Shown: positions 19,131-57,347 of the stretch, in pieces | Layout: each line of letters starts with the position of its first letter | Numbering within the stretch: the first letter of the stretch is position 1 | NCBI GenBank assembly: GCA_964385615.1 | Contig: CAYLPP010000008.1 | Coordinates: forward strand, 31,150-95,149 | Direction: 5' to 3' | Length of the DNA: 64,000 bases | Origin: an uncultured bacterium | Lineage (GTDB): Bacteria > Omnitrophota > Omnitrophia > Omnitrophales > Aquincolibacteriaceae | Translations under genes and position numbers: made by a program | The notes under the pieces: model-generated | Database searches by the model: none | The model's input: the letters and a program-made list of their open reading frames with translations, nothing else | What the model was told of the DNA's origin: nothing

Positions 19131-19340
19131 TTTCTCAATACAAAGCCTAAAATAGAGCTAAAATTAATGGTATCATTAGTCGATATTACTAATCGGCTTA
19201 CCTATTTGCAATAAATAGTTATAAATTGCTAGTTAATGCAACTTGAATCTTAGCCGGAATAAGGCTATCCTTAGGAAAAGTTAGGTTTGATAACTTTAAA
19301 AATTAACCGCATAAACCTTAATAACCATCGTCCAATAGGC
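19131..19340. promoter_or_regulatory. AT-rich intergenic region, candidate promoter for the downstream PQQ-propeller gene
   Basis: Around 210 nt are markedly more AT-rich than the flanking coding sequence (aaattaatggtatcattagtcgatattactaat...ataaatagttataaattgc). Several TATAAT-like hexamers are present. Confidence 0.3.
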
Positions 19341-22274: not shown

Positions 22275-23750
22275 ATGGCTAGAAATAAGCTTAAAGCTAA
22301 AGAAGCTTCGACCCCGGTTAAGTCGCCGTCCGTCCTCTGGATTTTCGCTCTGCTCGCATTTCTCAGTCTGACTGCTTTCGGCCGTTCACTTTCTTACTCC
22401 CGCTATATCAATCTTGATACGGAAGATTACGTGACAAAGAACTCTCATGTCCGTGCCGGCGTCAGTCTGGAAGAGATCCGCTGGGCTTTTACGACCTTTG
22501 ACACGGGGGATTGGCAGCCCCTGACCTGGATTTCCTGGATGGCGCTTGACCAGCCCTTCGGGATGGCCCCTTCGGTTTCGCGCGCCTTTAATTTAAGTTT
22601 TCATATTTTGACAACCTTTCTTCTTTTTATCGTACTCAGACGCATGACCGGCGATTTCTGGAAACCGGCATTCACGGCCGCTTTATTTTCAATTCATCCG
22701 ATGCGGGTTGAATCCGTTGTTTGGGTCGCGGAGCGCAAGGATGTTTTGTCCGGTGTCTTTTTCATGCTGGCTCTGCTTGCCTATGAAAAATACGCGCGCC
22801 GGCCTTCATTAAAAGCTATGTCGTTAACGGTTTTAGCGATGGCGGGGGGGCTGATGGCAAAGCCTGTTTTGGTAACCCTTCCGTTTCTCCTTCTGCTTTT
22901 GGATTACTGGCCGTTGAGGCGTTTTGAAACCTCAAGGTTCAGCGCGCTTGCGGCCGAAAAGATTCCGCTTTTTATCTTGTCCGCGTTTTCATGCGTTACG
23001 GCTTATATTGCGGGGCGCAGCGCCGGCGGGATGTATACGTTTGATGAGATCCCTCTGAAACTGCGTTTGATCAACGCGGTGATTTGTTATTTCCGGTATG
23101 TTAAAAAAACTCTCTGGCCTTATCCGCTCGCGCATTTTTATCCTCACCCCATGGGCGATTATTCTCAGGCGAAGCTGGCCGCGGGTTTTTTGACCTTAGC
23201 TATTATTTTTTATGCCGTTTGGCGCTTCCGAAAGGACAAGCCTTTTATCACTGTCGGTCTGCTGTGGTTTCTGGGAGTTTTATTTCCTGTCATGGGATGG
23301 GTTCAGGTGGGGAGCGCGGCGATGGCGGACCGCTACACCTACCTGCCTCACATTGGATTTTTTATTGCCGCTGTATGGCTCTGGCCCGTTAAGCCTTCGT
23401 CGAGAGCGGCCGCGGTTTTTAGCCTGCTTTTGTTGAGTATTCTTTCGTTCCAGCAGACGGGGTATTGGAGGAGCAGTATCGCGCTGAATCGGCACGCTTT
23501 AGAGACCACCCGGAGTAACCGTAAGGCCAAAGAAAACTTGAAATATTCGCTTATTAAGAGGGGGGACGTGCGCAAAGTTTTTGAGTTTTACGCGGATAAA
23601 GCAGGGGTCGAAATCCCTGAAATTGTGGTTCCGGAAGGAGCTTACCAAGGGAGAAATCCCCTAAAGTATGACAGTGAAAAGAGTTACGAGCAAAAAGAGT
23701 CCGATAATAAAGTCCCTGGTGCTCTTGACAATGCTGGGGGGGTCAGTTAA
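22275..23750 (+). CDS. Polytopic membrane glycosyltransferase, GT-C fold (TMTC / PMT_2 / DUF1736-like)
   Basis: It has at least 9 predicted TM helices. The first-loop acidic motif is DTEDYVTKNSHV (DExxxxxxNxxV as in PMT/TMTC). A DUF1736-like DRYTYLPHIGFFIA motif is present, and the C-terminal soluble tail is short. Confidence 0.6.
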   Translation: MARNKLKAKEASTPVKSPSVLWIFALLAFLSLTAFGRSLSYSRYINLDTEDYVTKNSHVRAGVSLEEIRWAFTTFDTGDWQPLTWISWMALDQPFGMAPSVSRAFNLSFHILTTFLLFIVLRRMTGDFWKPAFTAALFSIHPMRVESVVWVAERKDVLSGVFFMLALLAYEKYARRPSLKAMSLTVLAMAGGLMAKPVLVTLPFLLLLLDYWPLRRFETSRFSALAAEKIPLFILSAFSCVTAYIAGRSAGGMYTFDEIPLKLRLINAVICYFRYVKKTLWPYPLAHFYPHPMGDYSQAKLAAGFLTLAIIFYAVWRFRKDKPFITVGLLWFLGVLFPVMGWVQVGSAAMADRYTYLPHIGFFIAAVWLWPVKPSSRAAAVFSLLLLSILSFQQTGYWRSSIALNRHALETTRSNRKAKENLKYSLIKRGDVRKVFEFYADKAGVEIPEIVVPEGAYQGRNPLKYDSEKSYEQKESDNKVPGALDNAGGVS

Positions 23751-23845
23751 CTTTTAAGAGTATTTCGCAATTTGTGATCAAGGCAAACCCCGGGTAACCG
23801 GGGGGCGCAAAGCCGTGCGTCCTTAACAACGAAAGGATAGGCAGG

Positions 23846-24439
23846 TTGCCGCAAATGAAAAACGATAAGACTGAAGCAACAGAAAAATTTGTCCACTTTC
23901 AAAACCGGAAAGCCGCGTGCTTTTTAAAGGCGCAGGCTTCTTCCGGTTTTTTTATTTTGCTTAGCGTTTTGTTTTTGTCGAGTCCTTCTGTATCTCATGC
24001 CGCGCTGGTAAGTGAGGATCCTGCTCCTATGCCGGCCGCGGCTTCCCAAGTTTCTCAAACAGCGCATAAGACTGCTTCCGCGCCTCAAAAAGTGAAATCC
24101 TCAAAGGTGCTGATCAAGCGCGGTTTGGCTCCGGCTGAGAAAGGCGCGAAGCGCAAAAAACTTCGCGGGCAAGTCGGCGCTAAAAATATGAATGGCATGG
24201 CGGTTGTTTTTGAAAAGGATGATGTTAAGCGTTCTTCGAAAGAAATGTGGTTCCCGTTTGGCGATGAAACTTATCTAGCTGATTACGAAACTCTCGACGA
24301 TGTCCAGGAAGGTGACGAAGTTTCGGTTACTTATGATGAATCCGCTGAAGGCGTGGTCCAACTTAAGGGGATTTCGCTGGTGCGTAAAGCGCCGGTTGAA
24401 GCTGAACAGTACGATCCCGAAGCTGAGGCTGAAGAGTGA
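23846..24439 (+). CDS. Small secreted/membrane-anchored hypothetical protein, translationally coupled to giant gene 2
   Basis: A hydrophobic segment GFFILLSVLFLSSPSVSHA|A lies after a basic N-region. The C-terminus is acidic. Its stop (TGA) overlaps the GTG start of the next ORF (GTGA). An alternative ATG start lies at 23855. Confidence 0.55.
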   Translation: MPQMKNDKTEATEKFVHFQNRKAACFLKAQASSGFFILLSVLFLSSPSVSHAALVSEDPAPMPAAASQVSQTAHKTASAPQKVKSSKVLIKRGLAPAEKGAKRKKLRGQVGAKNMNGMAVVFEKDDVKRSSKEMWFPFGDETYLADYETLDDVQEGDEVSVTYDESAEGVVQLKGISLVRKAPVEAEQYDPEAEAEE

Positions 24440-27400
24440 ACCATACCCTGACATTCACCCGTAAAGTTGTTCAGGCATCTTTCCTTTTGTGGTCTATTTC
24501 ATTTGTTTTAACCGGTTCCGCGCAGGCAGCGCAGATTAAGAAAGTTTACCGCGGTATCGCGACTTTTGACGCTGCTGAAACTCTGCAGGCCGTTCCTATC
24601 GGCGGTTCCGTGGATCCGACCAAAACGGTCGTTCTGGTGACCAATACCCAGTCTACTAACACGGCTTACGACCGAAGCCTTTTCTTCGTTGCTCAGCTTG
24701 CCGGGAACGATACGATTCAGATTGAGCGCGGCGGCGCGGATGGCACGAACACCGCGAGCGCGGCGTGGCAGGTTATTGAATTTGCCGAAGGCGTCCGTGT
24801 TCAAGCCGGTATTTCAGCTGTGGACAAGGGCTCGCTGAGCAAAGATATAACGGTTCCGCCTCTCAGCCCTGCCATGGATATTACTAAAACGGTACCGATT
24901 ATTATGGTCAGAACGCCCATGGGCACCAACAACGCGGGCCGTTATCAAAGAACACACCAGTTATTTCTGCAGCCGAGCCTGGCTACTGACGGTACCAGCG
25001 TGACTATGACTCTGACACGGTTAGAGGCAAACTCGACCACCGGTGACAAAGCCGTGGCTGTTGCCTGGCAGCTTGTCGAGTTTACCACGGATGCAACAGT
25101 CCGTGCGGGTGATGTCTGTATGCGAGTGCCTGCTTCCGCTGGTTCGCAGACCGTGACTAACGATGGCCTGGACCCGGACGGAGGTACCACGAATTGCGGT
25201 ACGAACTCCAGCGCGTTTAGTCCCGCGCTAAATAGTTCTTCGACGGCCATGCTGTTCTTTTATCCCATGTATGGCTCGGGTTTAAACGGTGAAGATAACC
25301 GTATCTTTATCAGTGGAACGGTTTCAAATTCGACGACCGTGTCGTTTAGTCGAGGCTACGCGGCGACTACAGCTTCATCACATGTTCAGATTAAATATTA
25401 TGTCGTGGACTGGAACGACGGCAGCGCCGCCTTGGGCGCAGGAGCGAGGGGTTCGTTAAGCAGCGCGAGCCATCCGGCTCGAATAGGCGTTTCAGCGGGT
25501 ACGGACGCCGTAGACCCTGCGACGATTCAGATTACCACCGCTTCCGCGCATGGATATCAAGTAGGGGATGCCGTGATTCTCGCGGGTTGTTTGACGAATA
25601 CCGCGGCGAATGGAACTTACAAAGTTTCTAATGTTCCAAGTTCGACCACATTTGAAATCAACACATTTGATGGTGATATTGTGGAAGGTTCCGGCGCGGG
25701 CGCAGAGACGGGCTCCGCGGACTATGTTGCAAAATTTCAGGAAGTAAACATGACGACCGCGCTGACGACTGCCGACATTGACCGCATGATCAACTGGACA
25801 ACGTTCTCCGGCCCGAATAACAGCAATACGTCCACCTCTTCGAGCAATGCTGACGACCTGGCGCATGAAAGCTTTCTTTATACGAAAAGCGGCAGTGTTT
25901 ATTTGGCTACGCGCCGCGCACCGGATGGCGAACTCGCGGGTTCAACGCCGGTTACGATTCAATACCATGTTTATGAATTTCCGGAAATGACGCTGGACTC
26001 TCCCAACGGTGCTGAAAACCTGACAGTCGGACAGGCCGTTAACGTTAACTGGACCGCGGCCGACAGCGTCGCGACGAATGACTGGAAACTTCAAATTTCA
26101 ACGGATGCTCCTCATGCCACCTGGACTGATTTAACAACCGCCAATGGCCTTGGCACCTGCGGCGCCGGCGGTAATTCGGATTGTACAGGAACTGATCTTT
26201 CAACCGGAACTATCCAGTGGACGGTTCCTGACCAGATCAGTTCCACGGCACGCTTGAGGATTGTCGACACGACCAGTGGCGCTTCTCTTGCGCGCAGGAG
26301 TGATACCTCAAACGCCGATTTTAATATCCGCGGCAGTTTGACGGTGACGGCGCCTAATGGCGGTGAAACGTGGAATATTGGCGCGGCCAGTAATGTGACT
26401 TGGACTAAAACGGGAAGCCTGGATTACAGCACCGTGACTTTGAAGCTTTCTCTCGATAGCGGGGGAAGTTTCCCGACCACGATTACCAGTCTTTTGACTC
26501 CCAGCGCGCAGACTTATTCCTGGACACCGACCAATTCTCATGACGGCACGGCAAACCGTGTCCGCGCGGAACTGGCTTCCGATCCTACGTACGTTTACGA
26601 TGAATCAGACGCGGACTTTACGGTTCAGGGCAGTATCACTGTTGTCGCGCCCAACGGCGGTGAGAGCTGGGCCACACAGTCCGATGAAGACATTACCTGG
26701 ACCCGCACCGGTGCTTTTGCCAACGTTAAGATTGAATACTCAACCAACAGCGGCGGTTCGTTTCCTACCTTGATCGTTGCGTCTACGCCTGCTGACCCGG
26801 CTCCCGTTGATAACGCGGGTGTCTACACCTGGACGAATATTCCTACGGGAACGATCAGCACTTTCGGGCGTGTCAAAGTAAGCAGCACTTCAAACCTCAA
26901 CGTGGCTGATGAGTCAGACGCTGATTTCAGCATTGTGCCCTCGATCAAGGTGACTTCTCCCGACAACGGAACGGAAGTTTGGCGCGTGGGTGAAGCCAAT
27001 AACATTACCTGGGATTTGAACGGCGCGCTGGCAAACGTGAAAATTGAATATTCCAAGGATAATTTTGTCGGGGATATCAACTTGATTGTCGCTTCCACGA
27101 ATGCGGACCCGGCACCGGTCGATGGTTCCGGATACTATCAATGGACGATTCCTGACGATATTACTGCGACAGCCAAGGTTCGGGTCAGTAACGCGCTGGA
27201 CGCCAACAAGTATGATATTTCTGATAACAACTTCAAAATTCGCGGCAATATCACGGTAGTCTCGCCCAATGGCGGGGAAGTTTGGCCGGTCGCAAGCTCG
27301 CAGAACATTACCTGGGCCAAAGACGGTACCCTCGGTAACGTTGATATTCTCTATTCTATCAATGGCGGCTCCAGCTATCCAAACACTCTGGCTACAAACC

Positions 27401-30400
27401 AGGCGGGAACCTCGTGGAACTGGGACCCAATTCCTGATGCCATCAACAGCAACCTTAAAGTGAAAGTTCGTTCAACCACTTACAACACCGATACGGAAGA
27501 CGTTTCGGATGCGACGTTTGCCATCAAGGGTTCTTTCACGATTACGTCTCCTAACGGAAGTGAGCAGTGGGGAGCGGCTACCAGTAACGCTGTCACTTGG
27601 ACCTATACCGGTACCATGAGCACCGCAAAAATCGAATATGATGACAATAGCGGATTGAACGGTTATGCCAGCTTGGTTGTGGCTTCCGTTGCGGTTTCAG
27701 ATCAGACGTATTCATGGACCCTTCCATCCACGGTCGGCACTCATTATCGTGTCAGGATTTCCAGCAATGACGATGCGACAGTCTATGACACTTCCAACTC
27801 GGATTTCAGTATCCGTGGTAGCGTTACCTTGACGGCGCCCAACGGGGGGCAGACCTGGGTTGTGGGTACGAACCAGAACATCACTTGGACGTATGTCGGA
27901 ACCATTGCCAACGTCAAACTGGAATATTCCACGGATGGCGGCAGTAACTATTTGGCCGGCGGTTTGATTACTAATTCTGCTCCGGTCAGCCAGGCATATA
28001 CCTGGACCGTCGCAGATGCCATCGGCACTCAGCTGCGTGTCCGTGTTTCAGACGCGAATGATTCCACAGTCAATGACCAGTCTGATGCCAACTTTACGAT
28101 TAAAGGTTCTTTGACGATTACCGCGCCCAACGGCGGTGAAGCCTGGGTCGTGGGTGCTTCGAACAACATTACCTGGACCAAGACCGGTACCATTGCCAGC
28201 GTGAAACTGGATTATTCCACCAACGGTTTCTCGGATGAGCTTCAGAATTTTGCCATTATCGGTTCAACGCCCGGCGGTCTTCTTTCTTATGCCTGGACCA
28301 TTCCGGACGCGATTGGAACGACCTTGAAAGTCCGGATCGCTGATCTTTCTGACTTGACGGTTAAAGATGAATCGGATTTCAATTTCGGCATCAAAGGTTC
28401 TGTGACGATTACGGCTCCGAACGGCGGCGAGTCCTGGTCAGTGGGTTCTTCTCACAATATTACCTGGAGCAAGACCGGAACTTTGACCGGCAATATGAAA
28501 CTGGAATATTCCACGGATAATGGCGGAAGCTGGCTGGTTGGAAATTTGATCACTAACAGTGTGTTGGCTAGCGCGGGAACCTACGCTTGGACTCTTCCGG
28601 ATTCTCCCGGCGTTCAGACGCTGGTGCGCGCGACTCAAGTTGATGATACGTCGGTGACGGATACTTCAGACGGTGCTTTCAGTATTAAAGGTCAGCTGAT
28701 TTTGACGGCGCCTAACGGCGGTGAAACCTGGGTTGTGGGTGAAGGACGCGACGTGGAATGGACCCGTATCGGCTCTATTGCCAACGTTCGTTTGGACTAT
28801 TCTATTAACAGCGGCAGCACCTATCCGAACCAAATCACAGCTTCCACGCCGGCTTCCAACGAAAGCTATACCTGGACTATTCCGGATGCTATCGGCACCG
28901 GGTTAAAAGTGAAAGTGACCGATGCCAATGACTCTTCAGTCAATGATGTTTCAGACGCTGTTTTTGAAATCAAAGGTTCTTTAACGGTTACCGCGCCTAA
29001 CGGCGGTGAAACTTGGGTTGTCGGAAACAGCCAGAACGTGACCTGGACCAAGACCGGTACGATTGCCAACGTGATGCTGGAATACGCTACGAACGCTTTC
29101 TTAGATGAAAGTACGACGGCCACGATCGTTGCTTCGACTCCGGGCGCGAATTTGAGCTATGCCTGGACCATTCCGGATGCGATTGGGAATAACCTGAAAG
29201 TCCGTGTTACCAACCTCGCGGATACTACGGTGAAGGATGTGTCAGATGCGGCGTTCGCGGTTAAGGGCTCTCTGACCGTAGGTTCTCCGAACGGCAGTGA
29301 AGCCTGGATCGTGGGTGAAAGCCGTAATATCGTTTGGAGCATGACGGGCTCTCTGCAGAACGTGAAACTGGAATATTCCACTAACGGGTTCTCGGATGAA
29401 CTGCAAACAACATTGATCGTGGCTTCGACCGCGGCTGAAACCAATCCTCCCGCAGGCACGGGTTCCGGACAGTATGCGTGGACCGTGGCGGACGCCATCG
29501 GTACTTCTTTGAAAGTCCGCGTGACTGATGTGGACAATTCCACGGTCACTGACGTTTCCAACGCAGTGTTTACGATTAAAGGTTCCGTGACGGTGACGGC
29601 TCCCAACGGCGGTGAAATTTGGGCCGTGCTGGAAGATCATGACATTACCTGGACCCGCACGGGTTCTTTCAATAACGTTAAAATTGAATATTCCACGGAC
29701 AGCGGTTCCAATTTTTCGAGCGTCACGGCTTCAACCCCGGCTGACCCCGCTCCGGTGGATAACGCCGGCAAATTTACCTGGACGATCCCGGACAATATCA
29801 CGATTCAGGGCCGTGTGCGTGTTTCCGATTTTGATGACGCGACGGTCGTGGATACTTCGGACGCCAACTTCAAGATTCGCGGCGGTCTGGCTGTTTCGAC
29901 GCCCAACGGCGGTGAAAAATGGACGGTGGGTGACAGCCAGAATATCAGCTGGAATAAATTTGGAACGATTACTTCAACCGTCAAACTGGATTACACCAAG
30001 AATGGCGGAAGTAATTACACTTCAATCGCGACAGGCTTGAACGTTACCACTGCCAGCCCGTATGCCTGGACGGTGCCGGCGGATACTTCCCAGACGGTCA
30101 AGATTCGTGTCATGAGCGAAGCGGATACCGACACATTCGACTTGTCAGATGCCAATTTTAAGATTATGCCGAAGTTCGCCGTGACTTCACCCAACGGCGG
30201 TGAAGTCTGGTCCGTCGCGTCTTCTCAGACCCTCGGCTGGACCACTCAGGGTTCAGCGACCAACGTGAGACTGTCTTATTCTGTTGATGGCGGTAATAAT
30301 TACGCTACTGAGATTACGTCTTCGACTTCAAACACGGGTTCCTTTTCATGGACGGTTCCGGATGCGATTGGTACTGCCGTGCGCATCCGCGTGGAAAATG

Positions 30401-33400
30401 CGAGTGATTCCGAGGCTTTCGATGATTCGGATGCCAACTTCAAGATTCGCGGTGTGGTGCAGGTCACGTCTCCTAACGGCGGTGAATCCTGGAATATTGC
30501 CAGCGCGCACGCCGTAACCTGGAACATCACGGGTTCAATTGCGAATGTTAAGCTGGAATATTCCACCAACGGCTTCGCGGATGAAGGTTCGACCGCGACG
30601 ATTATCGCTTCGACTCCGGCCGATCCCGCTCCTGTTGACGGTACCGGCACTTATTCCTGGACGATTCCGGATACGCCTTCCAGCAGTGTGAAGGTCCGCG
30701 TTTCGGATGCTTCCGATTCCACGGCGTCTGATACTTCCAACGCGACTTTTTACATTCGCGGTTCTCTGGCCCTGAATGCTCCCAATGGTGGTGAGGCTTG
30801 GGTGGTGGGCGCGACCCAGAATATTCAATGGACCCGTACGGGTTCTATCGCCAACGTGAAACTGGAATACTCTAACGACAGCGGGTCGACCTGGCCCGCC
30901 GGTAAAGTCATTGTCGCTTCAACTCCGGCCGACCCCGCGCCGGCCGACAACATTGGTCTTTATTCTTGGACGATTCCCGATGACATCGGCACTTTGCTTC
31001 GCGTGCGTGTTTCTGACGCGGCGGACGCGGCCGTGGAAGATACTTCCAATGCCGATTTCACCATCCGCGGCGCGGTGACCGTAACGTCGCCTAACGGCGG
31101 TGAAACCTGGATCGTCGGCGACAGCCAGAACATTACCTGGACTTCTTCCGGTTCTTTCTTGAACGTCAAAATTGAATATTCAACGAATGCTTTTGCGAAC
31201 GAAACTCAGACCTCAACCATTTCCGGTTCGACGCCCAATGATGGTACGTATTCCTGGGCTATTCCGGACGCGATCGGCACGGCTCTTAAAGTCCGTATTT
31301 CCGACGCGTCGGATGCCAATGTCGTGGACGTCTCCAACGCGGCTTTTGAAATCAAGGGTTCCTTGACGATTACATCTCCTAACGGCAGTGAAGTCTGGAA
31401 AGTGGGAGAAAACCGCAGCATCACCTGGAACCGCACGGGTTCGATTACTACCGCGAAACTGGAATATTCCACGAACGGTGGTTCCAGCTATCCGAACACG
31501 ATCATTGCTTCCACGGACGCGACCACGGGTTCCTATGCATGGACGGTTCCTGACGCGATCAGCTCGGCTCTCAAGGCGCAGATTACTAACACGGATGACA
31601 CCAGCGTGAAAGACGCTTCGGATGCCAACTTCGAAATCAAAGGCACGCTGACTCTGACTTCGCCCAACGGCGGTGAGTCCTGGAAAGTGAACAGCCAGCA
31701 TAACATTACCTGGACCAAGACCGGTACTCAGGCGACCGTAAAACTGGAATATTCCACGGATGGTTTCGCGGATGAACTGCAGAATGTGACGATTGCCACG
31801 GGCGTTGACGCTGTGACCGGTACGCCCTATGTCTGGACGATTCCGGATGCCATCGGCAGCGCGATCAAGGTTCGCGTGACTAACGAAGCGGATTCCGCGG
31901 TCAAGGATGCTTCTGACACCAATTTCAAAATCACAGGTTCTCTGACGCTGGATTCGCCGAATGGCAGTGAGAACTGGGCTGTGGCTTCCGTTCAGACGGT
32001 TGCGTGGACGGTCGTCGGTTCAATCGCCAACGTTAAACTTGAATATTCAACCAACAGCGGTTCGACTTATCCGAACGTGATTACCTCTTCTACCGCGGCT
32101 GGCGCCGGTGCTTATTCCTGGACCCTGCCGGACTCGATTGGTTCGACCCGCCGCGTGAAAGTAACCGACGCGACAGATTCGACCGTCAGCGATACTTCAG
32201 ATGCGGATTTCTCGATCATCGGCGGATTCCAGATGACCAGCCCCAACGGGGGGGAAGTCTGGACCGTGGCTTCCGGTCATTCCGTGACCTGGAATACGGA
32301 CGGTACGGTTGCCAACGTGAAACTGGAATATTCCACCAATGGTTTTTCGGATGAGCTGGCGACTACGCAGATTGTGGCCAGCACCACTAACAGCGGAACT
32401 TATTCCTGGACGATTCCGGACGCGATTTCTTCCACGGTTAAGATCCGCGTCAGTGACGCCTCCAACTCCGTTGCTTACGATCTTTCCAACGGTAACTTCA
32501 AGATCCGCGGCGCCCTGCTGGTCAATGCTCCGAACGGCGGTGAAGCCTGGTTCATCGGGAATTCCCAGAACATTCAGTGGACCCGCACGGGCTCAATTGC
32601 CAATGTGAAGCTGGAATATTCTTCTAACGGTTTCGCGGATGAAAACCAGACGGACGTCATTATTGCTTCCACGCCCGCGGATCCGGCTCCCGCGGATAAT
32701 ATCGGCATTTATTCCTGGACGATTCCGGACACTCCGGGTACGGCGAATAAAGTGCGTGTGACGGACGCTTCCGATGCCACAGTGCTCGATACCTCCAACG
32801 CTAACTTCTCCATTAAAGGTCAGTTGGTCATGACTTCCCCGAATGGCGGAGAAGTCTGGACGGTCGGCGCGGTCAACAATGTGACCTGGAGCAAATTCGG
32901 CGCGATCGTTAACGTTTCTCTTCAATATTCCACGGACAGCGGCGGCACTTGGCCGGGCGCGAACGTGATTACGGCCTCAACCGCGGCGGATCCGGCTCCC
33001 ACCGATAATATCGGTGTTTATTCCTGGACGATTCCCGACGAGATCGGCACTCAGGTTCGGGTGCGTGTGGTGGATACGGCTGACAGCTCAACTTATGACG
33101 ATTCAAACGCGGATTTCAAAATCCGCGGTTCTGTGACGATTACCGCTCCTAACGGCGGTGAAAACTGGATTGTGGGTACGAACCAGAATATCACCTGGAA
33201 CAGCACCGGTTCTTTCTCAAACGTAAAACTGGAATATTCCACCAACGGCTTTTCGGATGAAAATCAGGTTGTCTCGATCACGACTTCAACGCCGAATAAC
33301 GGCAGTTATTCCTGGGCGATTCCGGATGCGATCGGCACGACTTTGAAAGTGCGCGCCAGCGATGTGTCTGACTCGACTGTGGTGGATACCTCCAATGCGA

Positions 33401-36400
33401 ACTTTACAATTAAAGGCGCTCTGGCAATTACATCGCCCAACGGCAGTGAAGTCTGGAAAGTGGGTGAAAGCCGTAATATTACCTGGAACCGCAGCGGTTC
33501 CATCACGAACGTAAAACTGGAATACTCGACTAACGGCGGTTCGACGTTCCCGAACACAATTATTGCCTCAACCGGAGCTGCTTCCGGCACCTACTCCTGG
33601 ACGGTTCCGGACTCTATCGGTACTCAGCTCAGGATCAAGGCTACTGACGTTTCCGACTCAACGGTTTCTGACGCTTCTGACGCTAACTTTGAAATCAAGG
33701 GCACAGTGACTGTGACCTCGCCCAACGGCAGTGAAGTTTGGGTTGTCGGAACTCAGCACAATGTGACCTGGACCAAGACCGGTACTTATGCCGCGGTCAC
33801 GCTGGAATATTCCACCAATGGTTTCACGGATGAACTTCAGAACAATACGATCGCGACCGGCGTTGACGCTGTGACTGGAACGCCGTACGCCTGGACCATT
33901 CCTGACGTGATCGGCACGACACTGAAAGTTCGCGTGACGAATGAAGCGGACGCCGCGGTCAAGGATGCTTCCGACCTTAACTTTAAAGTGACCGGCGCCT
34001 TTGTCCTGACGGCCCCTAACGGCGGTGAAAACTGGGCGGTCGGTCTCAACAAGACCGTGACCTGGACCCGCACGGGTTCAATCGCCAATGCCAAGCTGGA
34101 ATATTCCACCAACAGTGGTTCGACGTTCCCGAACGTGATTTCGGCCTCCACCGGCGCGGCGGCTGAAGCTTATATCTGGACGATTCCGGACGTGATTGGT
34201 TCAACCCGCCGGGTCAAGATTTCCGACGCTTCTGATGCTTCTGTTTACGATACTTCTGATGCCGATTTCGCCATCATGGGTTCCTTCACGGTGACGGCTC
34301 CCAACGGCGGGGAAGTCTGGACGGTCGGCAGTGCGCAGTCCGTGACTTGGACCACCGACGGTACCGTGGCCAACAACAAGCTGGAATATTCGACCAATGG
34401 TTTTTCGGATGAAAATCAGACCAGCGTTATGACGGCCAGCACGCCGAACACGGGCAGTTATTCCTGGACGGTTCCTGACGCGATTTCCACCACCGTCAAG
34501 GTCCGTGTCAGTGACGCAAGCAACGCGAATGCTTACGATATTTCAAACGGCAACTTTAAAGTCCGCGGCGCGCTGTTGTTGACTGCGCCTAACGGCGGTG
34601 AACAGTGGCTGATCGGCAACAGTGAAAATATCGCCTGGACCCGCACGGGTTCGATTGCTAACGTTAAGCTGGAATACGCCACCAACGGTTTCGCGGATGA
34701 AAGCACCACGGCTACGATTATCGCGTCAACTCCGGCGGATCCGGCTCCGGCTGACAATGCCGGCACTTATTCCTGGGCTATTCCTGACACGCCCGGCACC
34801 AGCAACAAAGTGCGCGTGACGGATGCTTCCGATTCAACGGTGCTGGACACCTCAAACGCCGTTTTCTCGATTAAAGGTCAGCTGGTCATGCAGATACCCA
34901 ACGGCAGTGAAGTCTGGGTGGTGGGCGGCGTCAACAACGTTCAGTGGTCGAAGTTCGGCAGTATCTCCAACGTCGCTCTCTATTTCTCGACGGACAGCGG
35001 CGGCACCTGGCCGGGCGGAAACCAGATTGTGGCTTCCACGGCGGCGGACCCGGCTCCTATTGATAACGTCGGTATTTATTCCTGGACCATTCCTGACCAG
35101 ATCGGAACCCAGCTGCGTGTGCGTGTGCAGGACGCGGACGATGCTTCCACTTATGATGATTCCAACAATGATTTCAAGATCCGCGGTTCTATCACCATCA
35201 CGGCCCCCAACGGCGGTGAAAACTGGATTGTCGGCGATACTCAGAACATTACCTGGAATCACACGGGTTCTTTTGCCAACGTGAAGCTGGAATATTCAAC
35301 TAACGGTTTCTCAGATGAAAGCCAGACGGTTTCGATTACGACTTCGACCCCGAATAACGGTTCTTACTCTTGGGCCATTCCTGACGCGATCGGAACCAGC
35401 GTGAAGGTTCGCGCCAGTGACGTTTCGGATTCGACGGTCGTTGATACCTCGAATGTTAACTTTACGATTAAAGGTTCTCTGGATTTGACTTCTCCGGACG
35501 GCAGTGAAGTTTGGAAAGTCGGTGAAAACCGCAACATTACCTGGAACCGCAGCGGCTCGATTGCTAACGTGAAGCTGGAATATTCGACCAACGGCGGTTC
35601 GAGCTATCCGAACACCATTATTGCTTCAACGGACGCCGCGACCGGCACTTACTCCTGGACGGTTCCTGACTCCATCGGCAGTCAGCTTCGCGTTAAGGTT
35701 TCTGACGTGTTGGACGCCACCGTGTCGGATACTTCGGCGGCCAACTTCTCGATTAAAGGCACTGTGACTGTGGGTTCTCCAAACGGCGGGGAAGTCTGGG
35801 CGGTCGGCACTCAGCACAACATTACCTGGACCAAGACCGGTACTTACGCGACAGTGGCTCTGGAATATTCCACCAATGGTTTCAGCGATGAACTTGCCAA
35901 TACGACGATCGCGACCGGTGTGGACTCTGTGACCGGCACACCTTACACCTGGACGGTTCCTGACGTGATTGGTTCCACACTGAAAGTGCGCGTGACCAAT
36001 GAAACGGATCCTTCCGTGAAAGATACTTCCGACCTGAATTTCAAGGTCGTCGGCTCTCTGACCCTGACCGCTCCGAACGGCGGTGAAAATTGGGCCGTGG
36101 GCAGCAGCAAAACGATTACCTGGACGCGTGTCGGTTCAATCGCCAATGCCAAGATTGAATATTCAACCAACAGCGGTACTACTTACCCGAACGTGATTGT
36201 GGCTTCCACGGGCGCGGCGGCTGAAGCTTACATCTGGACAATTCCGGATGCGATTGGCACAACCCGCAAGGTTAAGATTTCTGACGCTTCGGATGCTTCG
36301 GTTAATGATGTTTCCGACGCGGACTTTACGATCATGGGCGCTTTTGCCGTGACGGCTCCGAACGGCGGCGAAGTCTGGACGGTCGGCAGCGCACAGTCTG

Positions 36401-39400
36401 TGACCTGGAATACCACCGGTACCGTATCCAACGTGAAACTGGAATATTCGACCAACGCTTTCTCAGATGAACTGCAGACGGGTGTGATGATTGCCAGCAC
36501 GCCCAATACCGGCACGTACTCCTGGACGGTGGCTGACGCGATTTCAGCCCTGAACAAAGTACGCGTTAGCGATGTGAACAACGCCAATGCTTATGACCTT
36601 TCAGACGCGATCTTCAAGATCCGCGGTGCTATTATCGTGACGGCCCCGAACGGCGGCGAGCAGTGGGAAATCGGTACTTCTCAGAACATTACCTGGACCC
36701 TGACAGGTTCAATCGCCAACGTAAAACTGGAATATTCGACGAACGCTTTCTCTGACGAACTGCAGACCGCTGTGATCGTGGCTTCTACCGCGGCGGATCC
36801 TGCTCCTGTGGATGGAACCGGAACCTATGCCTGGACGATTCCTGACTCTCCGTCGACTACCACGAAAGTGCGCGTTACGGATGCTTCGGATTCCACGGTG
36901 CTGGATACCTCCAACGCCAACTTCGCTCTGAAGGGCCGCCTGGTCATGACGGCGCCTAACGGCGGCGAAATCTGGGTCGTGGCCGGTGTCAACAACATCA
37001 CATGGGACAAGTTCGGCAGTATCTCCAACGTCGCTCTTTATTATTCGACCGACAGCGGCGGTACCTGGCCCGGCGCGAACCAGATTGTGGCTTCCACTAA
37101 CGCCGATCCTGCGCCGATTGACGGTCACGGCGTTTACGCCTGGACCATTCCGGATCTTATCGGCACACAGGTCCGCGTGCGCGTGCAGGACGCGATTGAT
37201 CCTTCGACTTACGATGATTCCGACGCCGACTTCAAGATTCGCGGTTCCATCACGATCACGGCCCCGAACGGCGGTGAAACCTGGATTGTGGGTGATACTC
37301 AGAGCATTACCTGGAACCACACGGGTTCTTTTTCCAACGCGAAACTTGAATATTCTACTAACGGTTTTTCGGATGAACTGCAGACCAGCACGATCACCGG
37401 CGCGACGACTAATAACGGCAGTTACTCCTGGGGTATTCCGGATGCTATCGGTTCCTCAGTCAAGGTCCGCGGCAGTGACGCTGGAGATTCCACGGTCAAT
37501 GATGCTTCCAACGCCAACTTCACCATCAAGGGAGCTCTTCTTCTGACGTCGCCTAACGGCAGTGAAGTTTGGAAAGTGGGCGAAAGCCGTAATATTACCT
37601 GGAACCGCACAGGGTCGATTGCCAACGTCAAGCTTGAATACTCGACCAACGGCGGTTCGGCCTACACCAATACGATTATCGCGTCTACGGGCGCCGGTTC
37701 CGGTACTTACGCGTGGACGGTTCCAGACTCGATCGGCAGTCAGCTGCGCGTGCAGGTTTCCGATGTGACGGATTCCACGGTTAACGACGCTTCTGACGCG
37801 AATTTTCAAATCAAGGGTACGGTCACTCTGACTTCGCCTAACGGCGGTGAAGTTTGGGTTGTAGACAGCCATCACAACATTACGTGGACCAAGACCGGTA
37901 CTTATCCGACGGTGAAGCTTGAGTACTCCACCAACGGCTTTACGGATGAACTGCAGAACACAACGATTGCGACTGGCGTGGACTCTGTCAGTGGGACTCC
38001 TTATGACTGGACCGTTCCCGACATTATTGGTTCCGCGATTAAAGTTCGTGTGACCAATGAAACGGATACGACCGTTAATGATGCTTCCGATCTCAATTTT
38101 AAAGTCACCGGCGCGTTTACTTTAACGGCTCCTAACGGCGGTGAAGAATGGGCGGTCGGTGCTTCTCAGACCATTACCTGGAACCGCACGGGTTCGATTG
38201 CCAACGCCAAGCTGGAACTTTCCACGAATGGCGGTTCGACTTATGGAACCGTGATTCAGGCTTCGACCGGTGCCGCGGCTGAAGCTTATATCTGGACGAT
38301 TCCGGATTCTATCGGCGTGAACCGCCGTGTTCGTATTTCTGACGCTTCAGATGCCAACGTGAAAGACACGTCGGATGCCGATTTCTCGATTCTTGGATCG
38401 TTCACGGTCACCAGCCCGAACGGCGGTGAAGTCTGGACGGTGGCTTCCGCGCAGTCTATCGGCTGGAGCACGGTGGGTACGGTGGCCAACGTGAAGCTCG
38501 AATACTCCACCAACGCTTTTAATGATGAATTACAGACCGTAACGATTGCCGCTACCGCCCCGAACACGGGCAGTTACTCCTGGACGGTGTCCGACGCGAT
38601 TTCAGCTCTGGCCAAGATCCGCGTCAGCGACGTGAATAACGCCAATGCTTACGATATTTCCAACGCCGTTTTCAAGATCCGCGGTGCCTTAACAGTTAAT
38701 GCTCCGAACGGCGGCGAAGCCTGGCTGATCGGTAATTCTCAAAATATTCAGTGGACCCGCACGGGTTCGATTGCCAACGTGAAACTGGAATACTCTTCCA
38801 ATGGTTTTTCCGATGAGTTGCAAACGGATGTGATTGTGGCGTCTACAGCCGCGGACCCGGCTCCTGCCGATAACATTGGTCTTTATTCCTGGACCATTCC
38901 GGACAATCCGGGTACGGCCAATAAGGTCCGCGTCACTGACGCTTCTGACGCGACAGTTCTGGATACCTCTAACGCCAATTTCTCCATCAAAGGTCAGGTG
39001 GTATTGACCATCCCGAACGGCGGGGAAGTTTGGACGGTTGGCGGGGTCAATAATATTACCTGGAATAAATTCGGCGCGATCTCGAACGTTAAATTGCAGT
39101 ATTCAACGGATAGCGGTGATACGTGGCCCGATCCGGCCAACGTGATTACGGTTTCCACGGCGGCTGACCCTGCGCCTACCGATAATATCGGCGTTTTCTC
39201 CTGGACGATTCCCGATGCGATCGGAACTCATCTGCGTGTGCGTGTGCAGGATACGGCTGACAGCTCGACTTACGACGATTCTAACGCGGACTTCAAAGTG
39301 CGCGGCCGTATTACGATCACGGCTCCCAACGGCGGTGAAGCCTGGGTCGTGGGTACCAGCCAGAACATTACCTGGACGCACGCCGGTTCTTTCCCGAACG

Positions 39401-42400
39401 CCAAGCTGGAATATTCCACGAACGCGTTCGCAGATGAAAGTCAAACGTTCTCCATCACGGCGGCCACCCCGAACACGGATTCTTACGCTTGGTCGATTCC
39501 GGATGCTATCGGCAGCGCGGTGCGCGTGCGCGGCAGTGACGCCGCGGACTCCACTGTGAATGATACTTCCGACAACAATTTCACGATCAAAGGTTCTTTG
39601 ACTCTGACTTCTCCTAACGGCAGTGAAATCTGGAAGGTCGGTGAAAGCCGTGCGGTTACGTGGAATAAAGCGGGCAGTATCGCCAACGTTAAACTGCTTT
39701 ATTCAAACAACGGCGGTTCGACCTACGGCTTTACGATTACAAATTCGACGGATGCCAACACGGGTTCCTACACCTGGACCGTGCCTGACACCATCAGCGC
39801 GCAGATCCGAGTTGAGGTTTCTGACGTCACGGATGCTACCGTGAAAGATTCTTCCGATGCCAATTTTGAAATTAAGGGCACGGTTCTTTTGGTTACTCCC
39901 AACGGCGGGGAACAGTGGGCGGTCAATACCGCACACAATATTACCTGGACCAAGACCGGTACTTACTCTTCAGTAAAACTGGAATATTCCACGAATGCTT
40001 TTGCTGACGAACTTCAAACGACGACGATCGCGACCGGCGTGGATTCCGTGACCGGGACGCCTTACAGCTGGACGATTCCGGACACGATTAGCTCCAGTAT
40101 CAAGGTCCGCATTACCAATGAATCCGACTCGGCTGTGACTGACAAGTCGGACAATACATTCAAGATTGTGGGTTCACTGACTTTGACGGCTCCCAACGGC
40201 GGAGAAAGCTGGAATGTCGGAACTTCTCAGACCGTTTCCTGGGACCGCGTGGGTTCGATCGCCAACGTCAAATTGGAATACTCCACTACCGGCGCGGCGC
40301 CTTATCCGAATTTGATCGTTTCTTCCACGTCTGCCGGCGCGGGCGCTTATTCCTGGACGATTCCGGATTCTATCGGCACCACCCGTAAGGTTAAGGTGAC
40401 CGACGTGACGGATTCCACGGTTTATGACGAATCGGACGCTAACTTTGCCATTGTCGCGACTTTCAATATTACTCAGCCTAACGGCGGTGAAGTCTGGACG
40501 GTAGCTTCCACCCAGAACATTACCTGGACAACAACCGGTTCAGTCGCGAACGTGAAGTTGGAATACTCCGTGGATAACGGCACTGACAGTTACGGGAATG
40601 TGATCGCTAATTCGACGCCGAACAATTTGACTTACTCCTGGCAGATTCCCGACACCATCAGCACTCTGATGAAGGTGCGTGTCAGCGATGTGAATAACGC
40701 CAATGGTTTTGATACCTCCAACGCTGTTTTTAAGATTCGCGGCGCGCTGACGGTTGATGCTCCGAACGGCGGTGAAGCGTGGGGTATCGGTACGAACAAG
40801 ACGGTTCAGTGGACCCGCACGGGTTCGATTGCCAACGTCAAACTTGAATATTCCACCAACGGTTTCTCGGATGAACTGCAGACGGCTTTGATTGTTGCTT
40901 CGACGCCTGCTGATCCGGCTCCCTCCGATAATATTGGAACCTATTCCTGGGCCATTCCTGACGTTCCGTCTACGACGGTTAAGGTCCGGGTTACCGACGT
41001 CGCGGATTCAACGGTGCTGGATACCTCAAACGGTGTTTTCAGCATCAAGGGTTCTTTGACGATTACGGCTCCTAACGGCACTGAAACCGGATCGAATTCC
41101 TGGATTGTCGGCACGCCCTACAACATCACCTGGATCAAGGGCGGCGCGATTTCCAACGTTAAACTTCAGTACTCAACGGACAGCGGTGTGACTTGGCCGG
41201 ATCCCAGCAAGGTCATTACGACTTCCACCAGCGCCGGTTTCCTGAGCTATACCTGGACGATTCCGGATGATATTACCAATAAAGGCCGTGTCCGTATTCT
41301 GGATGCTAACGACAATAGCGTTAACGACGTTTCTGATGCTGATTTCTCAATCAAGGGTTCTCTGCACCTGACTTCACCGGATGGTACTGAAATCTGGACG
41401 GTGGGTGATACGCACGCAGTGACCTGGACCAAGACCGGTACGATCGCCAACGTCAAACTCGAATATTCAACCGACGGCGGATCCAATTATACCGGCACGA
41501 TCACGGCTTCAACGGCCGCGGCCGCGGGCACGTTTAACTGGACGATTCCGGATTCCATCAGCACTCAGGTCCGCGTGAAAGTTACGCAGACCAACGATTC
41601 TTTTGTGACGGACGCGTCGGATGCCAATTTGGAAATTCGCGGTTCTCTGACGGTCACTTCGCCTAACGGCGGTGAAGTCTGGCGCGTGGCCGATGCTCAG
41701 CCGATTACCTGGACCAAGACCGGTACGATCCCGACTGTTGAAATCGATTATTCCATCAACGGCGGTTCAAGCTATCCGTTTACCATCGCAACGGGCGTGG
41801 CCGGATCTTCAGGCAGTTATTCCTGGACGATTCCCAACGCGATTACCACCAATGCCCGTGTGCAGGTTGTCAATGAAAGTGACACTCAAGTGTTTGACGG
41901 GTCGGATGCCGATTTTAAAATTGCCGGTTCCATTACAGTGGTTTCGCCTAATGGCGGTGAGAAGTGGGCCATTGGAAGTTCCAAGAATATTACCTGGACG
42001 ATTACGGGTTCTATCTCAAGTGTTAAACTGGAATATTCCACCGACGGCGGCTCCACTTACCCGAACATTATTGCCGCTTCCGTGAATGCTTCAACCGGCA
42101 CGCCTTATGCCTGGACGATTCCGGATGATCCCACGACTCAAGGACGCGTGAAAGTTACGAACACGGCGGACACCACGATCTTTGACGCTTCTAACACCAA
42201 CTTCAAAATTCAAGGTTCCGTGACCGTGACTCAGCCTAACGGCGGTGAAGCCTGGAACGTAGGTGAAACCAAGAGCATTGTTTGGAGCAAGACGGGTTCC
42301 TTTGCCAATGTGAAAATCGATTACTCCGTTGACGGCGGTTCGACGTATCCGAACATTGTTTCGGCCTCCACGCCTTCGGGCAATCTGAGCTATGCCTGGA

Positions 42401-45400
42401 CGATTCCGGATGATATCTCTACGACCGCCCGCGTTAAGGTCACGGATACTAATGACAGTGAAGTGACGGATGAATCAAACGCTGATTTCACGATTCGCGG
42501 TGTCTTTACGGTTACGGCGCCTAACGGCGGTGAAACCTGGCGCGTCGGTCAGGCTCAGAATGTTACCTGGACCGTTACGGGTTCAGTGGGTAACGTGAAA
42601 ATTGAATATTCAACCAATGCTTTCGCGGATGAAAGCCAGACTAATCTGATTGTCGCGACGACTCCGGCGGGGAACTTGACCTATGCCTGGAACATTCCGG
42701 ACGCGATCAGCAATACGGTGAAGGTCCGTCTGACGGACGTGGACGGAATTTCTCTGGGTGACGTTTCTAACGGAAGTTTTTCAATCAAGGGTTTGATCAC
42801 GCTGACGTCGCCTAACGGCGGTGAATCTTACGGCGTCAACAGCGCGCAGAATATTACCTGGAACCGCACGGGTTCTTTCTCCAATGTGAAGCTGGAATAT
42901 TCCACCAACGGATTTTCGGATGAAAATGAAACCAATCTGATTACAGCCTCGACTCCGGCCGATCCCGCGCCGGTCGATAATACCGGAACTTACGCCTGGA
43001 CGGTTCCCGACGCGATTTCAATCACGGTGAAAGTCCGTGTGACTGATGCCAATGACGCGGCCACGACCGATACCTCGAATAACAATTTCACCATTCGCGG
43101 CGTGCTGACCATCACGGCGCCTAACGGCGGTGAAAAGTGGATTGTCGGTACGGCCCAGCTGATTACCTGGGACCGCCAGGGTTCAATTTCTAACGTTAAA
43201 TTGCAATACACGACTAACGGATCGATTTATACGGATATTATTCTTTCAACCCCGAATACCGGCACTTATGCCTGGACGATTCCGAACTCCGTTTCCACCA
43301 CGGTTAAGGTCCGTATTTATGACGTGAACAATAACACCGTGACGGACGATTCTGATGCCAACTTCAAGATTCAGGCCGGTTTCACGCTTTCTTCGCCTAA
43401 CGGCGGTGAAGCCTGGCTGGTCGGCAGTACGCACTCCATTGACTGGACGACTTTTGGTACCGTGCCTTTTGTCCGCCTGGATTATTCCACGGACAGCGGC
43501 GCCAATTACAGTAATCAGATTAGCACCTCGACCGGCAACAGTGGAAGCTACTCCTGGGTAGTTCCGGACAGTGTTTCTGGAACGGTTAAAGTGCGCGTCT
43601 CTGACACGAATGACGTGACGGCCAATGATGAATCTAATGCCGACCTGCGCATTCGCGCTTCGATCAGCGTGGTTACGCCTAATGGTGCTGAACAATGGCG
43701 CGTTGGACGCAGTCAGAATATTACCTGGGGTATGGTTGGTACGATTCCGAACGTGAAAATTCAGTATTCTCGGGATGGTTTCTTCGCGGATATTCAGACC
43801 GTTGCGGCTTCCGCGCCGAACACCGGCACCTATGCCTGGACCATTCCTGACAGCATTTCCAATGTGGTTAAGGTCAAGATTATCGATCCGAATGATATCG
43901 GCGCTTACGACATTTCCGATGCTAACTTCCGTATCACAGGCGATTTCGCGATTACGTCGCCCAACGGCGGTGAAAAGTGGAACGTGGATTCCGATCATGA
44001 CATTACCTGGACTCACGCGGGTACGGTCAGTGATGCCACCCTGGAATATTCCACGAACGCGGGCGGCAGCTGGAACCCGATTACCGGTTTGACGCCTAAT
44101 AACGGCGCTTACACCTGGACGATTCCGGATTCCATTACGGCCCAAGGCCGTGTTCGTATCAGTGATCCGAATGATTCGACGGCCAATGATATTTCTGACG
44201 CTAATTTCAAGATCCGGTCGTTCTTTACGCTGGGTGCTCCTAACGGAACTGAAATCTGGACGGTGGGTGATGTGCACGCGATTACCTGGACTAACACGGG
44301 TACGGTCAGCAACGTCAAGCTGTGGTACTCCACTGATAGCGGCGCGACTTTCCCGAATGTGATTATCGCTTCGACATCGAACACGGGGACCTACAACTGG
44401 ACGGTTCCGGATTCTATTTCAACGACGGTTCGTGTACGCGCGGGCAGCCCGACGGACGTGGATGCTTACGATGATTCCGATGCAGACTTGAAGATCCGCG
44501 GTAAGTTTGTGATTTCCGCGCCTAACGGCAATGAAAAATGGAAAATCGCCCAGGCTTCAAATATTCAGTGGGTTACGACCGGTACGATTGCTGATGTGAA
44601 GCTTTACTATTCGACTAATTCCGGCTCAACTTTCCCGAATGTGATCGCGGCTTCAACGCCTAACGGAGCCAGCGGCGCGACGGCTTCTTACAGCTGGACG
44701 GTTCCGGATGACGCGAGCACCATGGCGCGCATTCGCGTTGAAAATATTGCCGACACGACGGTTTATGACGATTCTGACGCTGACTTCAAGATTCAGGGTA
44801 ACTTTATTCTAACCGCGCCTAACGGCGGAGAGCAGTGGATTGTGGGCGATTTACACAATATTACCTGGAACTGGGGCGGTACGATTGCCAACGTTAAGCT
44901 GAGCTACTCTGTTGACAGCGGTTCGAACTATTCACAAGTGATCGCGGCTTCGGCTCCTAATGGTTCGGGCGGTTCCGGTTCCGCTTCCTACAGCTGGACG
45001 GTTCCGGATGATATTTATTCCACGCTCCGCGTGAAAATCGAAGATCCGAATGACGCTGAAGTTTTTGATGAATCGAACGCGGACTTCAAAATCACCGGTT
45101 CTTTCCTGATCACTTCGCCGGCCGGCGGTGAACGCTGGGTGACGAACGAAGTTCACGCGATTACCTGGAACACCACGGGTACGGTACCGACCGTGAAACT
45201 GACCTATTCGCACGACAATTTCGCGACCTCGAATCTGATCACGGCTTCGACGGCGAACGCTGATACTTATAACTGGACGATTCCTGATCCGGGCATCAAC
45301 AACATTCCGAAATCGACTCGTGTGCGCGTGGAAGATACCCGCGACGCGAATGTGAACTCAACTTCCTCAGCTTTCAACATTGACTACTACTACATCACCT

Positions 45401-51747: not shown

Positions 51748-51842
51748 TTCTTATACAGAGATTGACAAAGTTATTAAAAGATTAACTACGCAAAAAAACA
51801 GGAACTGTTCCATGGGTGTGTCACTAACCAGAGGAATTGTGC

Positions 51843-55123
<3,281 letters not shown>

Positions 55124-57340: not shown

Positions 57341-57347
57341 GTGAGCC

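Follow-up and report, generated by a model that had tools for sequence, protein, structure and literature searches.

A candidate GT-C glycosyltransferase encoded beside a giant Ig-like repeat protein in an uncultured Omnitrophota bacterium

The window analysed here is a 64,000-nucleotide stretch (contig CAYLPP010000008.1, positions 31,150 to 95,149, assembly GCA_964385615.1) from an uncultured bacterium of the phylum Omnitrophota. Our subject is a membrane protein of 491 amino acids (aa) encoded at 22275–23750, very probably a glycosyltransferase of the GT-C class, and its possible acceptor among the exported proteins encoded around it, foremost the very large repeat protein encoded shortly downstream (giant protein 2, ‘giant 2’ in short). 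The whole cluster is co-directional on the plus strand, with intergenic gaps of 20–157 bp, and holds the following genes and features (TPR, tetratricopeptide repeat; PBP, penicillin-binding protein; TM, transmembrane).

204–1769, + strand: GspD-type secretin, upstream of giant protein 1; secretion-machinery context
1790–2836, + strand: coiled-coil/TPR protein, upstream of giant protein 1; secretion-machinery context
2862–19130, + strand: giant protein 1 (‘giant 1’), 5422 aa, with signal peptide, LamG/ConA-like domains and 40 repeats
19287–20552, + strand: BamB-like PQQ beta-propeller protein, 5′ of u206 here and in the related locus L003 (55% identity)
20587–21207, + strand: u206, small exported protein; its acidic, E/P/A-rich tail ends in KKKKGWF
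21290–22255, + strand: class-A beta-lactamase/PBP-like serine hydrolase, between u206 and the GT-C gene
22275–23750, + strand: GT-C-fold membrane glycosyltransferase candidate, 491 aa, with about 1.5 TPR units left at aa ~392–443
23846–24439, + strand: u197, small exported protein with signal/anchor helix, A/P/S-rich linker and acidic C-terminus
24436–47073, + strand: giant protein 2, 7545 aa, with Sec-type signal peptide; candidate acceptor
25984–45369, + strand: repeat array of giant 2, 66 units of ~96 aa (aa 517–6978), Pfam Kre9_KNH
47098–48066, + strand: u322, with signal peptide, A/P/S-rich linker, conserved domain and C-terminal TM helix
between u322 and the type II secretion genes, + strand: F-type ATP synthase operon
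55622–62764, + strand: type II secretion/type IV pilus-like genes (GspE, GspF, pseudopilins J and K, PilM/N-like, GspM-like), 3′ of the ATP synthase operon

The genes for the BamB-like protein, u206, the beta-lactamase-like protein, the GT-C protein, u197, giant 2 and u322 would make up a co-directional envelope gene set, flanked by the secretin and giant 1 on one side and by the ATP synthase and type II secretion system (T2SS) genes on the other. The stop codon of u197 overlaps the GTG start of giant 2 (GTGA). No convincing terminator was found in the interval between the GT-C gene and u197, and a promoter and terminator scan of the window gave counts at shuffle expectation. An initial reading of the sequence alone had placed giant 2 0.7 kb downstream of the membrane protein; the gap is indeed 686 bp, but it holds the open reading frame (ORF) of u197, which that reading did not mention.

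Fold, topology and family of the membrane protein

The description of the product of 22275–23750 as polytopic was confirmed: it is an intact plus-strand ORF whose lysine and arginine bias and predicted structure both fit a multi-spanning membrane protein. Homology searches returned more than 7,805 proteins of a single family, in which a TM part is joined to TPRs, with E-values down to 1e-134. The five nearest homologues are 46–53% identical, and four of them are short and TPR-less (435–457 aa); almost all of the remaining ones, among the matches listed, measure 500–850 aa and carry a C-terminal TPR array. Family members are named ‘tetratricopeptide repeat protein’ at NCBI and, in several cases, ‘protein O-mannosyl-transferase’ at JGI, and many have a precomputed match to PF13231. 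When 14 relatives were searched, the TM parts of eight matched PF13231 (PMT_2; best E-value 2.5e-7) and none matched DUF1736 (PF08409) at E ≤ 1. No match to PF02366 or MIR, nor to Wzy_C in Pfam or NCBIfam, was found in the window protein or in these 14 relatives.

An AlphaFold2 (AF2) model was built from a 45-sequence alignment and contained 11 membrane-length helices (pLDDT, the predicted local distance difference test, 86.5; pTM, the predicted template modelling score, 0.87). Six matches at E ≤ 1e-3 were returned by Foldseek against the PDB, all of them GT-C enzymes (Pmt4, PglB, STT3, ArnT), with Pmt4 9i5k (E 4.1e-4), PglB 6gxc, STT3 6ezn, ArnT 5f15 and Pmt1/2 6p25 as top entries. ALG12, AftA and DPY19 came next, and every match with a probability of at least 0.9 was a GT-C enzyme; unrelated transporters entered the list only at low probability. 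Lysine and arginine make up 27% of residues in the predicted cytoplasmic loops vs 9% in the periplasmic ones (C-terminal tail excluded), which fits an N-in, 11-TM, C-out topology with the conserved loops in the periplasm.

Three results speak against so firm a placement. The 491-aa protein itself matched no Pfam or NCBIfam model even at E = 10, a profile of its TM part retrieved no PDB sequence at E ≤ 10, and the Foldseek matches score modestly (E about 1e-3 to 1e-4, TM-score 0.34–0.43). A single-sequence or full-length-profile search of PDB sequences gave TPR matches only, among them a weak one at aa 392–441. Because direct classification with hidden Markov models (HMMs) gave nothing, the GT-C assignment rests on fold and on transitive sequence evidence. 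The GT-C class proposed from the sequence alone is thus upheld by the fold matches and by the PF13231 matches of relatives, but not by any direct HMM match of the window copy. An identity as a transporter or an O-antigen ligase was rejected, since the fold matches are GT-C enzymes and Wzy_C is absent. The data support the protein as a TPR-less member, in a small Omnitrophota subclade, of a bacterial 11-TM+TPR (TMTC-like/PMT_2-related) family, and it very probably belongs to the GT-C enzymes. Scans of metagenomes and GTDB genomes with the subclade alignment found general family members at 25–48% identity and no close member of the subclade, and a scan of genome contigs with the protein alone as query found no relative.

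Both sequence motifs pointed out at the start are present. LDTEDYVTKNSHV occupies aa 47–59 in the predicted periplasmic external loop 1 (EL1), and DRYTYLP lies at aa 352–358. Invariant throughout the 45-sequence alignment are D48, R154-K155-D156, K196-P197, D210/W212 and D352-R353-Y356, and in the AF2 model the RKD, KP and DRYTY motifs sit at helix-helix turns on the predicted periplasmic side. TMTCs carry DD in EL1 (motif M1), RxD in EL2 (M3), KExxxT in EL3 (M4) and ERxxY in EL5, between TM9 and TM10 (M7), while their DUF1736 segment with its DW motif (M5) lies between TM7 and TM8 (PMC7801869). Judged by position and pattern, not by an alignment with TMTCs, D48, R154-K-D156, K196-P197 and D352-R-Y-T-Y356 correspond to M1, M3, the lysine of M4 and M7. 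DRYTYLP was therefore misplaced as a DUF1736-like motif: by position it is the (E/D)RxxY of EL5, and the loop equivalent to the DUF1736 segment reads WPYPLAHFYPHP.

The label ‘TMTC-like’ suits the family, with its 11 TM helices, TPRs, RxD, K-x4-T and (D/E)RxxY, but not fully the window copy, which lacks the TPR array, D49 and H103. The copy reads T at residue 49, which in 43 of 44 relatives is the second D of the DD motif (E50 and D51 follow it), and R at residue 103, which is H in all 44. Since TPR array, DD motif and DUF1736 are all missing, we file the protein as a GT-C enzyme of the bacterial TMTC-like/PMT_2-related family and not as a TMTC.

Giant proteins and gene order in relatives

Giant 2 consists of a Sec-type signal peptide, an N-terminal region of ~500 aa, the 66 tandem repeats and a C-terminal region of ~570 aa that contains coiled-coil-like sequence. 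Every seven repeats make up a super-repeat of 686 aa; super-repeats share 66–72% identity and neighbouring units ~50%, indicating that giant 2 was amplified in blocks. An AF2 model of one repeat (pLDDT 93) is a 7-strand beta-sandwich, and its nearest solved structures are fibronectin type III (FN3)/immunoglobulin-like (Ig-like). GC skew is ~0 over giant 2 vs +0.03 to +0.13 elsewhere in the window.

The sequence-only reading had called giant 2 extremely Ser/Thr-rich and had placed these residues in loops. Its Ser+Thr content is high (24.2%, about twice that of its neighbours, with N at 7.5% and charged residues at only 15.8%), and all other window proteins range from 8 to 16%; giant 1, at 15.5% Ser+Thr and 3.7% N, was rightly said to have far fewer. 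Mucin-like tracts are, however, absent: no 20-aa window reaches 60% Ser/Thr and the longest Ser/Thr run is 6. Nor are Ser/Thr confined to loops, since in the modelled repeat they make up 33% of the residues in strands and 25% of those in loops. Of the repeat motifs quoted, TSNAN occurs 4 times and ASTPADPAP 8 times, but STNGS does not occur. Column by column, charged positions of the giant 1 repeats are S/T/N in giant 2, and these are surface positions. TMTCs and TMEM260 O-mannosylate folded cadherin and IPT domains (PMC11292533, PMC10214176). With Ser/Thr spread over folded repeats and no tracts, any glycosylation of giant 2 would take place on folded Ig-like domains, so that the TMTC/TMEM260 paradigm would apply and not that of protein O-mannosyltransferases (PMTs). 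A literature match that seemed to tie the Kre9 domain to O-glycosylation concerns Kre1p and was set aside. N-glycosylation of the PglB type was also considered and dropped, as the 132 sequons in giant 2 are close to the number estimated from composition.

The same repeat type occurs 40 times in giant 1 (aa 1186–4941; nt 6417–17684), and the post-repeat domains of the two giants are 32% identical, so that the two are paralogous in architecture.

The gene order around the GT-C gene recurs in four Omnitrophota relatives (L002, L003, L013 and L014; GT-C ~45–53% identical): u206, where the contig reaches it, is followed by the short GT-C gene and then by a TPR-bearing GT-C gene (GT-C-TPR), with a third GT-C copy in the row of L013. 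On the L002 contig a u197-like gene (35% identity) comes next, and after it the contig covers the beginning of a giant-2-like gene, which shows 54% identity over 432 aa and has four repeat units and 22.4% Ser+Thr. The most conserved neighbour is u206, directly 5′ of GT-C in L003:1155-1778, L013:2-448 and L014:1-528 (54–68% identity); it combines a globular core with a long acidic tail rich in E/P/A/V, and its basic C-terminal end (KKKKGWF or KKKWF) is invariant. A beta-lactamase-like gene stands between u206 and GT-C only in the window. Set against these gene orders, the TPR-bearing paralogue has gone from the window and the beta-lactamase-like gene has come in.

On the other side of giant 2, two Omnitrophota relatives found through AtpD carry giant orthologues of 5013 and 9221 aa directly 5′ of the ATP synthase and T2SS genes, with C-terminal regions 49% and 39% identical to that of giant 2. 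Their contigs begin within the giant gene or shortly 5′ of it, and the region further 5′ lies outside them. Both relatives keep the order giant, ATP synthase, T2SS. A search with the N-terminal 520 aa of giant 2 found a single 293-aa fragment. In L095:5516-6313 and L097:5550-6191, the giant ORF runs on in frame, at its 3′ end, into a segment homologous to u322 (55–65% identity, the C-terminal TM helix included). Giant 2 of the window ends in a stop codon and u322 is a separate ORF 25 bp 3′ with its own signal peptide, which looks like gene fission. As the giant of these relatives ends in the u322 segment and its TM helix, the bulk of the giant is expected to lie outside the cytoplasm.

The ATP synthase operon has features of its own. 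The best named relatives of AtpD are all ‘Candidatus Omnitrophica/Omnitrophota’ (84%, 82%, then 64–67% identity). A PAS/HisKA/HATPase histidine kinase gene (51837–53711) lies inside the operon, between atpG (50833–51696) and atpD (53714–55123); atpD directly follows atpG in L095 and L096, with no kinase gene between them. The b and delta (OSCP) subunits are fused into a protein of ~250 aa in the window (48602–49351), as they are in L095:6844-7593 and L097:6847-7605, and one 795-aa gene call in L097 spans the alpha and gamma positions.

Sugar donor, acceptor and competing explanations

The reading that we favour has three steps. Fold, topology and the conserved residues of the loops put the active site on the periplasmic face. 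To judge from the wider family, a small family 2 glycosyltransferase (GT2) encoded elsewhere in the genome would supply the donor, a polyprenyl-phosphate monosaccharide. The acceptor would be a Sec-exported protein of the same cluster, as the genomic context suggests, and its Ser/Thr would be modified in the periplasm, ahead of display on the surface or export through the T2SS. The first candidate is giant 2; giant 1 and the A/P/S-rich linkers of u197 and u322 come after it. We give this reading as a whole a probability of roughly 40%. For its parts, the chances that the protein performs protein O-glycosylation at all are about even, and giant 2 in particular is a somewhat doubtful acceptor.

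A wider-family sample of 89 loci from GTDB genomes and metagenomes (25–48% identity; Verrucomicrobiota, Planctomycetota, Desulfobacterota, Acidobacteriota and other phyla) provided information on the donor. The commonest non-self neighbour is a GT2 of ~260 aa, present in nine loci and directly adjacent on the same strand in six; its best NCBIfam matches, all below the curated cut-offs, are synthases of polyprenyl- or dolichyl-phosphate sugars (AglJ, PpgS, Dol-P-hexose transferase, PgfS and ArnC). A further locus, L098, has the row PMT_2, GT2, GT-C-TPR, GT-C-TPR. This recurrent company supports a probable lipid-linked monosaccharide donor for the 11-TM+TPR family. GT1, GT9 and YfhO genes also recur near family members, and other GT-C types (PMT_2-only, YfhO) are found there occasionally. 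Large exported proteins near distant members include a 2808-aa Kelch-like protein with 28.6% Ser+Thr in a Terriglobia metagenome-assembled genome (MAG; L041:99-8522, minus strand) and, beside family members in Myxococcota and Deltaproteobacteria MAGs, two-partner secretion (TPS)/filamentous-haemagglutinin-like proteins (L078:2-5341, L081:1-5469).

The pairing with giant 2 is plausible because the two genes are adjacent and co-oriented, the gene order returns in L002 and giant 2 has a Sec-type signal peptide. A good deal weighs on the other side. Only L002 among the four relatives has a contig that reaches the giant gene, and with relatives at ~50% protein identity the common gene order may simply be inherited. 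No giant-2-type repeat protein was found within 10 kb in any of the 89 wider-family loci. Paralogues abound in the family (167 genes in 86 of the 89 loci), and at least two copies occur in 37 of 93 loci, in tandem rows of up to seven (L067; four in L026, L036 and L072), which makes neighbourhood a weak guide to the substrate. Neither the window nor the loci of the close relatives contain a GT2 or polyprenyl-phosphate-sugar synthase gene. Giant 2 has no Ser/Thr tracts of the kind favoured by PMT-type enzymes, and since giant 1 carries 40 repeats of the same type, the Ser/Thr argument, as far as domain type goes, points no more to giant 2 than to giant 1, which on that score would be an equally valid candidate acceptor. 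The enzyme itself is without the TPR array thought to bind acceptors and departs from the family at residues 49 and 103, and the TPR-bearing paralogue of the four relatives is missing from the window.

An active enzyme may instead modify other exported proteins (pseudopilins or pilins, u197, u322 or a broad set of envelope proteins), the adjacency to giant 2 being lineage-specific synteny. We consider this fairly unlikely, but it agrees with the massive paralogy and tandem arrays of the family, with the absence of giant-2-type repeats near all 89 wider-family loci and with u206, not the giant, being the most conserved neighbour. The disordered A/P/S-rich linkers of u197 and u322 resemble the acceptors of streptococcal GT-C enzymes, which O-glycosylate exported proteins at Ser/Thr-rich intrinsically disordered regions (PMC12041528). 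Pseudopilin genes are present in the window, at about 58.6–60.7 kb, and TfpW of Pseudomonas aeruginosa is a precedent for pilin modification; they lie ~35 kb off, however, with the ATP synthase operon between, and no pilin gene adjoins the 491-aa GT-C gene. The tail of u206 is acidic and E/P/A-rich rather than Ser/Thr-rich, and in L002 the GT-C pair is again followed directly by the u197-like and giant-2-like genes.

It is unlikely that the acceptor is no protein at all but a lipid or envelope polysaccharide, as for ArnT (lipid A) or the Emb/Aft enzymes (cell-wall glycans), within a cluster devoted to envelope biogenesis. ArnT and AftA are among the fold matches, PF13231 also takes in ArnT-like enzymes, and the TPR domain that would speak for a protein acceptor is missing from this copy. 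A PBP/beta-lactamase-like hydrolase and a BamB-like protein are neighbours, and elsewhere in the family GT1, GT9 and YfhO genes lie nearby time and again. Against this, the periplasmic TPR array that is common to the protein-modifying TMTCs and TfpW is present in nearly all family members, no lipopolysaccharide (LPS) or cell-wall glycan biosynthesis genes were found among the window genes, and the beta-lactamase-like gene is an insertion specific to the window.

Least probable, and quite unlikely in our view, is a catalytically impaired copy, either a non-catalytic partner as in PMT-type dimers or a decaying paralogue, whose TPR-bearing partner has been deleted: D49T and H103R fall at positions 98–100% conserved in 44 relatives, the copy departs from the family at 14 of 116 highly conserved columns, it has lost its TPR array, the GT-C-TPR gene that lies directly 3′ in four relatives is absent, and mutation of the DDX motif abolishes TfpW function (10.1101/2020.04.19.049825), but the ORF is intact and full length, the family residue is kept at every column invariant in the other sequences (D48, RKD, KP, DRYTY), E50 and D51 keep the loop acidic, and the deviation count of 12 is near that of the TPR-less sisters (11), which (P0002-4 and P0006) retain DD. 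The TPR-less form is conserved in at least five sequences, which implies selection.

Relation to known systems and meaning

Returning to the favoured reading, a GT-C enzyme acting on an exported protein of its own cluster, the eukaryotic TMTC1-4 offer the closest parallel. The bacterial family shares with them 11 TM helices and a C-terminal TPR array on the non-cytoplasmic side, and the acidic EL1 motif, RxD in EL2, Lys in EL3 and (E/D)RxxY in EL5 stand at equivalent positions; the candidate acceptor giant 2 is made of folded Ig-like repeats, as cadherins are for TMTCs. Unlike TMTCs, the window protein has no TPR array, reads DT instead of DD and has K-P vs K-E in EL3, DUF1736 is unmatched in the 14 relatives, and the donor in the bacterial case would be a polyprenyl-phosphate sugar.

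Among bacterial systems, TfpW is a pilin O-arabinosyltransferase predicted to have 11 TM helices, with a DDX motif in its first periplasmic loop and a TPR domain at the C-terminus; it is encoded beside its substrate gene pilA, its model was built on ArnT and its D-Araf donor genes are known (10.1101/2020.04.19.049825). By description it is like the family in its 11-TM+TPR GT-C architecture and loop-1 acidic motif; its substrate is a small pilin vs a giant repeat protein here, and its donor genes are known whereas none were seen in the window. PMT/POMT enzymes (GT39) and actinobacterial Pmt also resemble the window protein: Pmt4 is the best Foldseek match and Pmt1/2 is matched as well, the loop-1 motif is acidic, and relatives match PF13231. 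The window protein lacks their MIR domain and has no PF02366 match, and their classical acceptors are Ser/Thr-rich disordered regions, which were not found in giant 2. The streptococcal GT-C system, again likened by description, pairs an exoplasm-facing GT-C with a small GT2 lipid-sugar synthase, and PgfS is among the matches of the neighbouring GT2s; its GT-C enzymes have no TPR domain.

Giant genes of Omnitrophota flanked by type II secretion or pilus genes have already been described in two reports (10.1101/2023.11.21.568195, 10.64898/2026.06.07.730766). The window giants likewise lie near gspD/E/F-type genes; as pure Ig-like repeat proteins of 5–7.5 thousand aa, they differ from the multi-enzyme ‘archaeovorin’ type. 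Term searches of these two reports returned no passage on a GT-C or O-mannosyltransferase neighbour. A GT-C protein glycosyltransferase beside a candidate substrate is a known kind of arrangement; its setting among Omnitrophota giant proteins was not met in those term searches. No published substrate for the bacterial 11-TM+TPR family was found in our literature search. We regard the finding as a reasonable annotation joined to a hypothesis, not as a discovery.

A broader proposal, which we hold to be improbable, is that TMTC-like GT-C enzymes of Omnitrophota O-glycosylate Ser/Thr on the folded Ig-like repeats of secretion-system-associated giants, and that the TPR-less and TPR-bearing pair of the relatives could heterodimerise like Pmt1-Pmt2. 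If O-glycosylation of giant repeats proves true, it would be a prokaryotic counterpart of TMTC-cadherin O-mannosylation and would assign a first substrate class to the thousands of uncharacterised bacterial ‘TPR proteins’ that make up this family. Through a conserved pair of enzyme and acceptor, this very large GT-C family (>7,800 matches, often with several copies in tandem in one genome) would also become open to experiment. The giant surface proteins of Omnitrophota are thought to mediate attachment to prey or hosts, and the pairing would bear on how these bacteria build and protect them.

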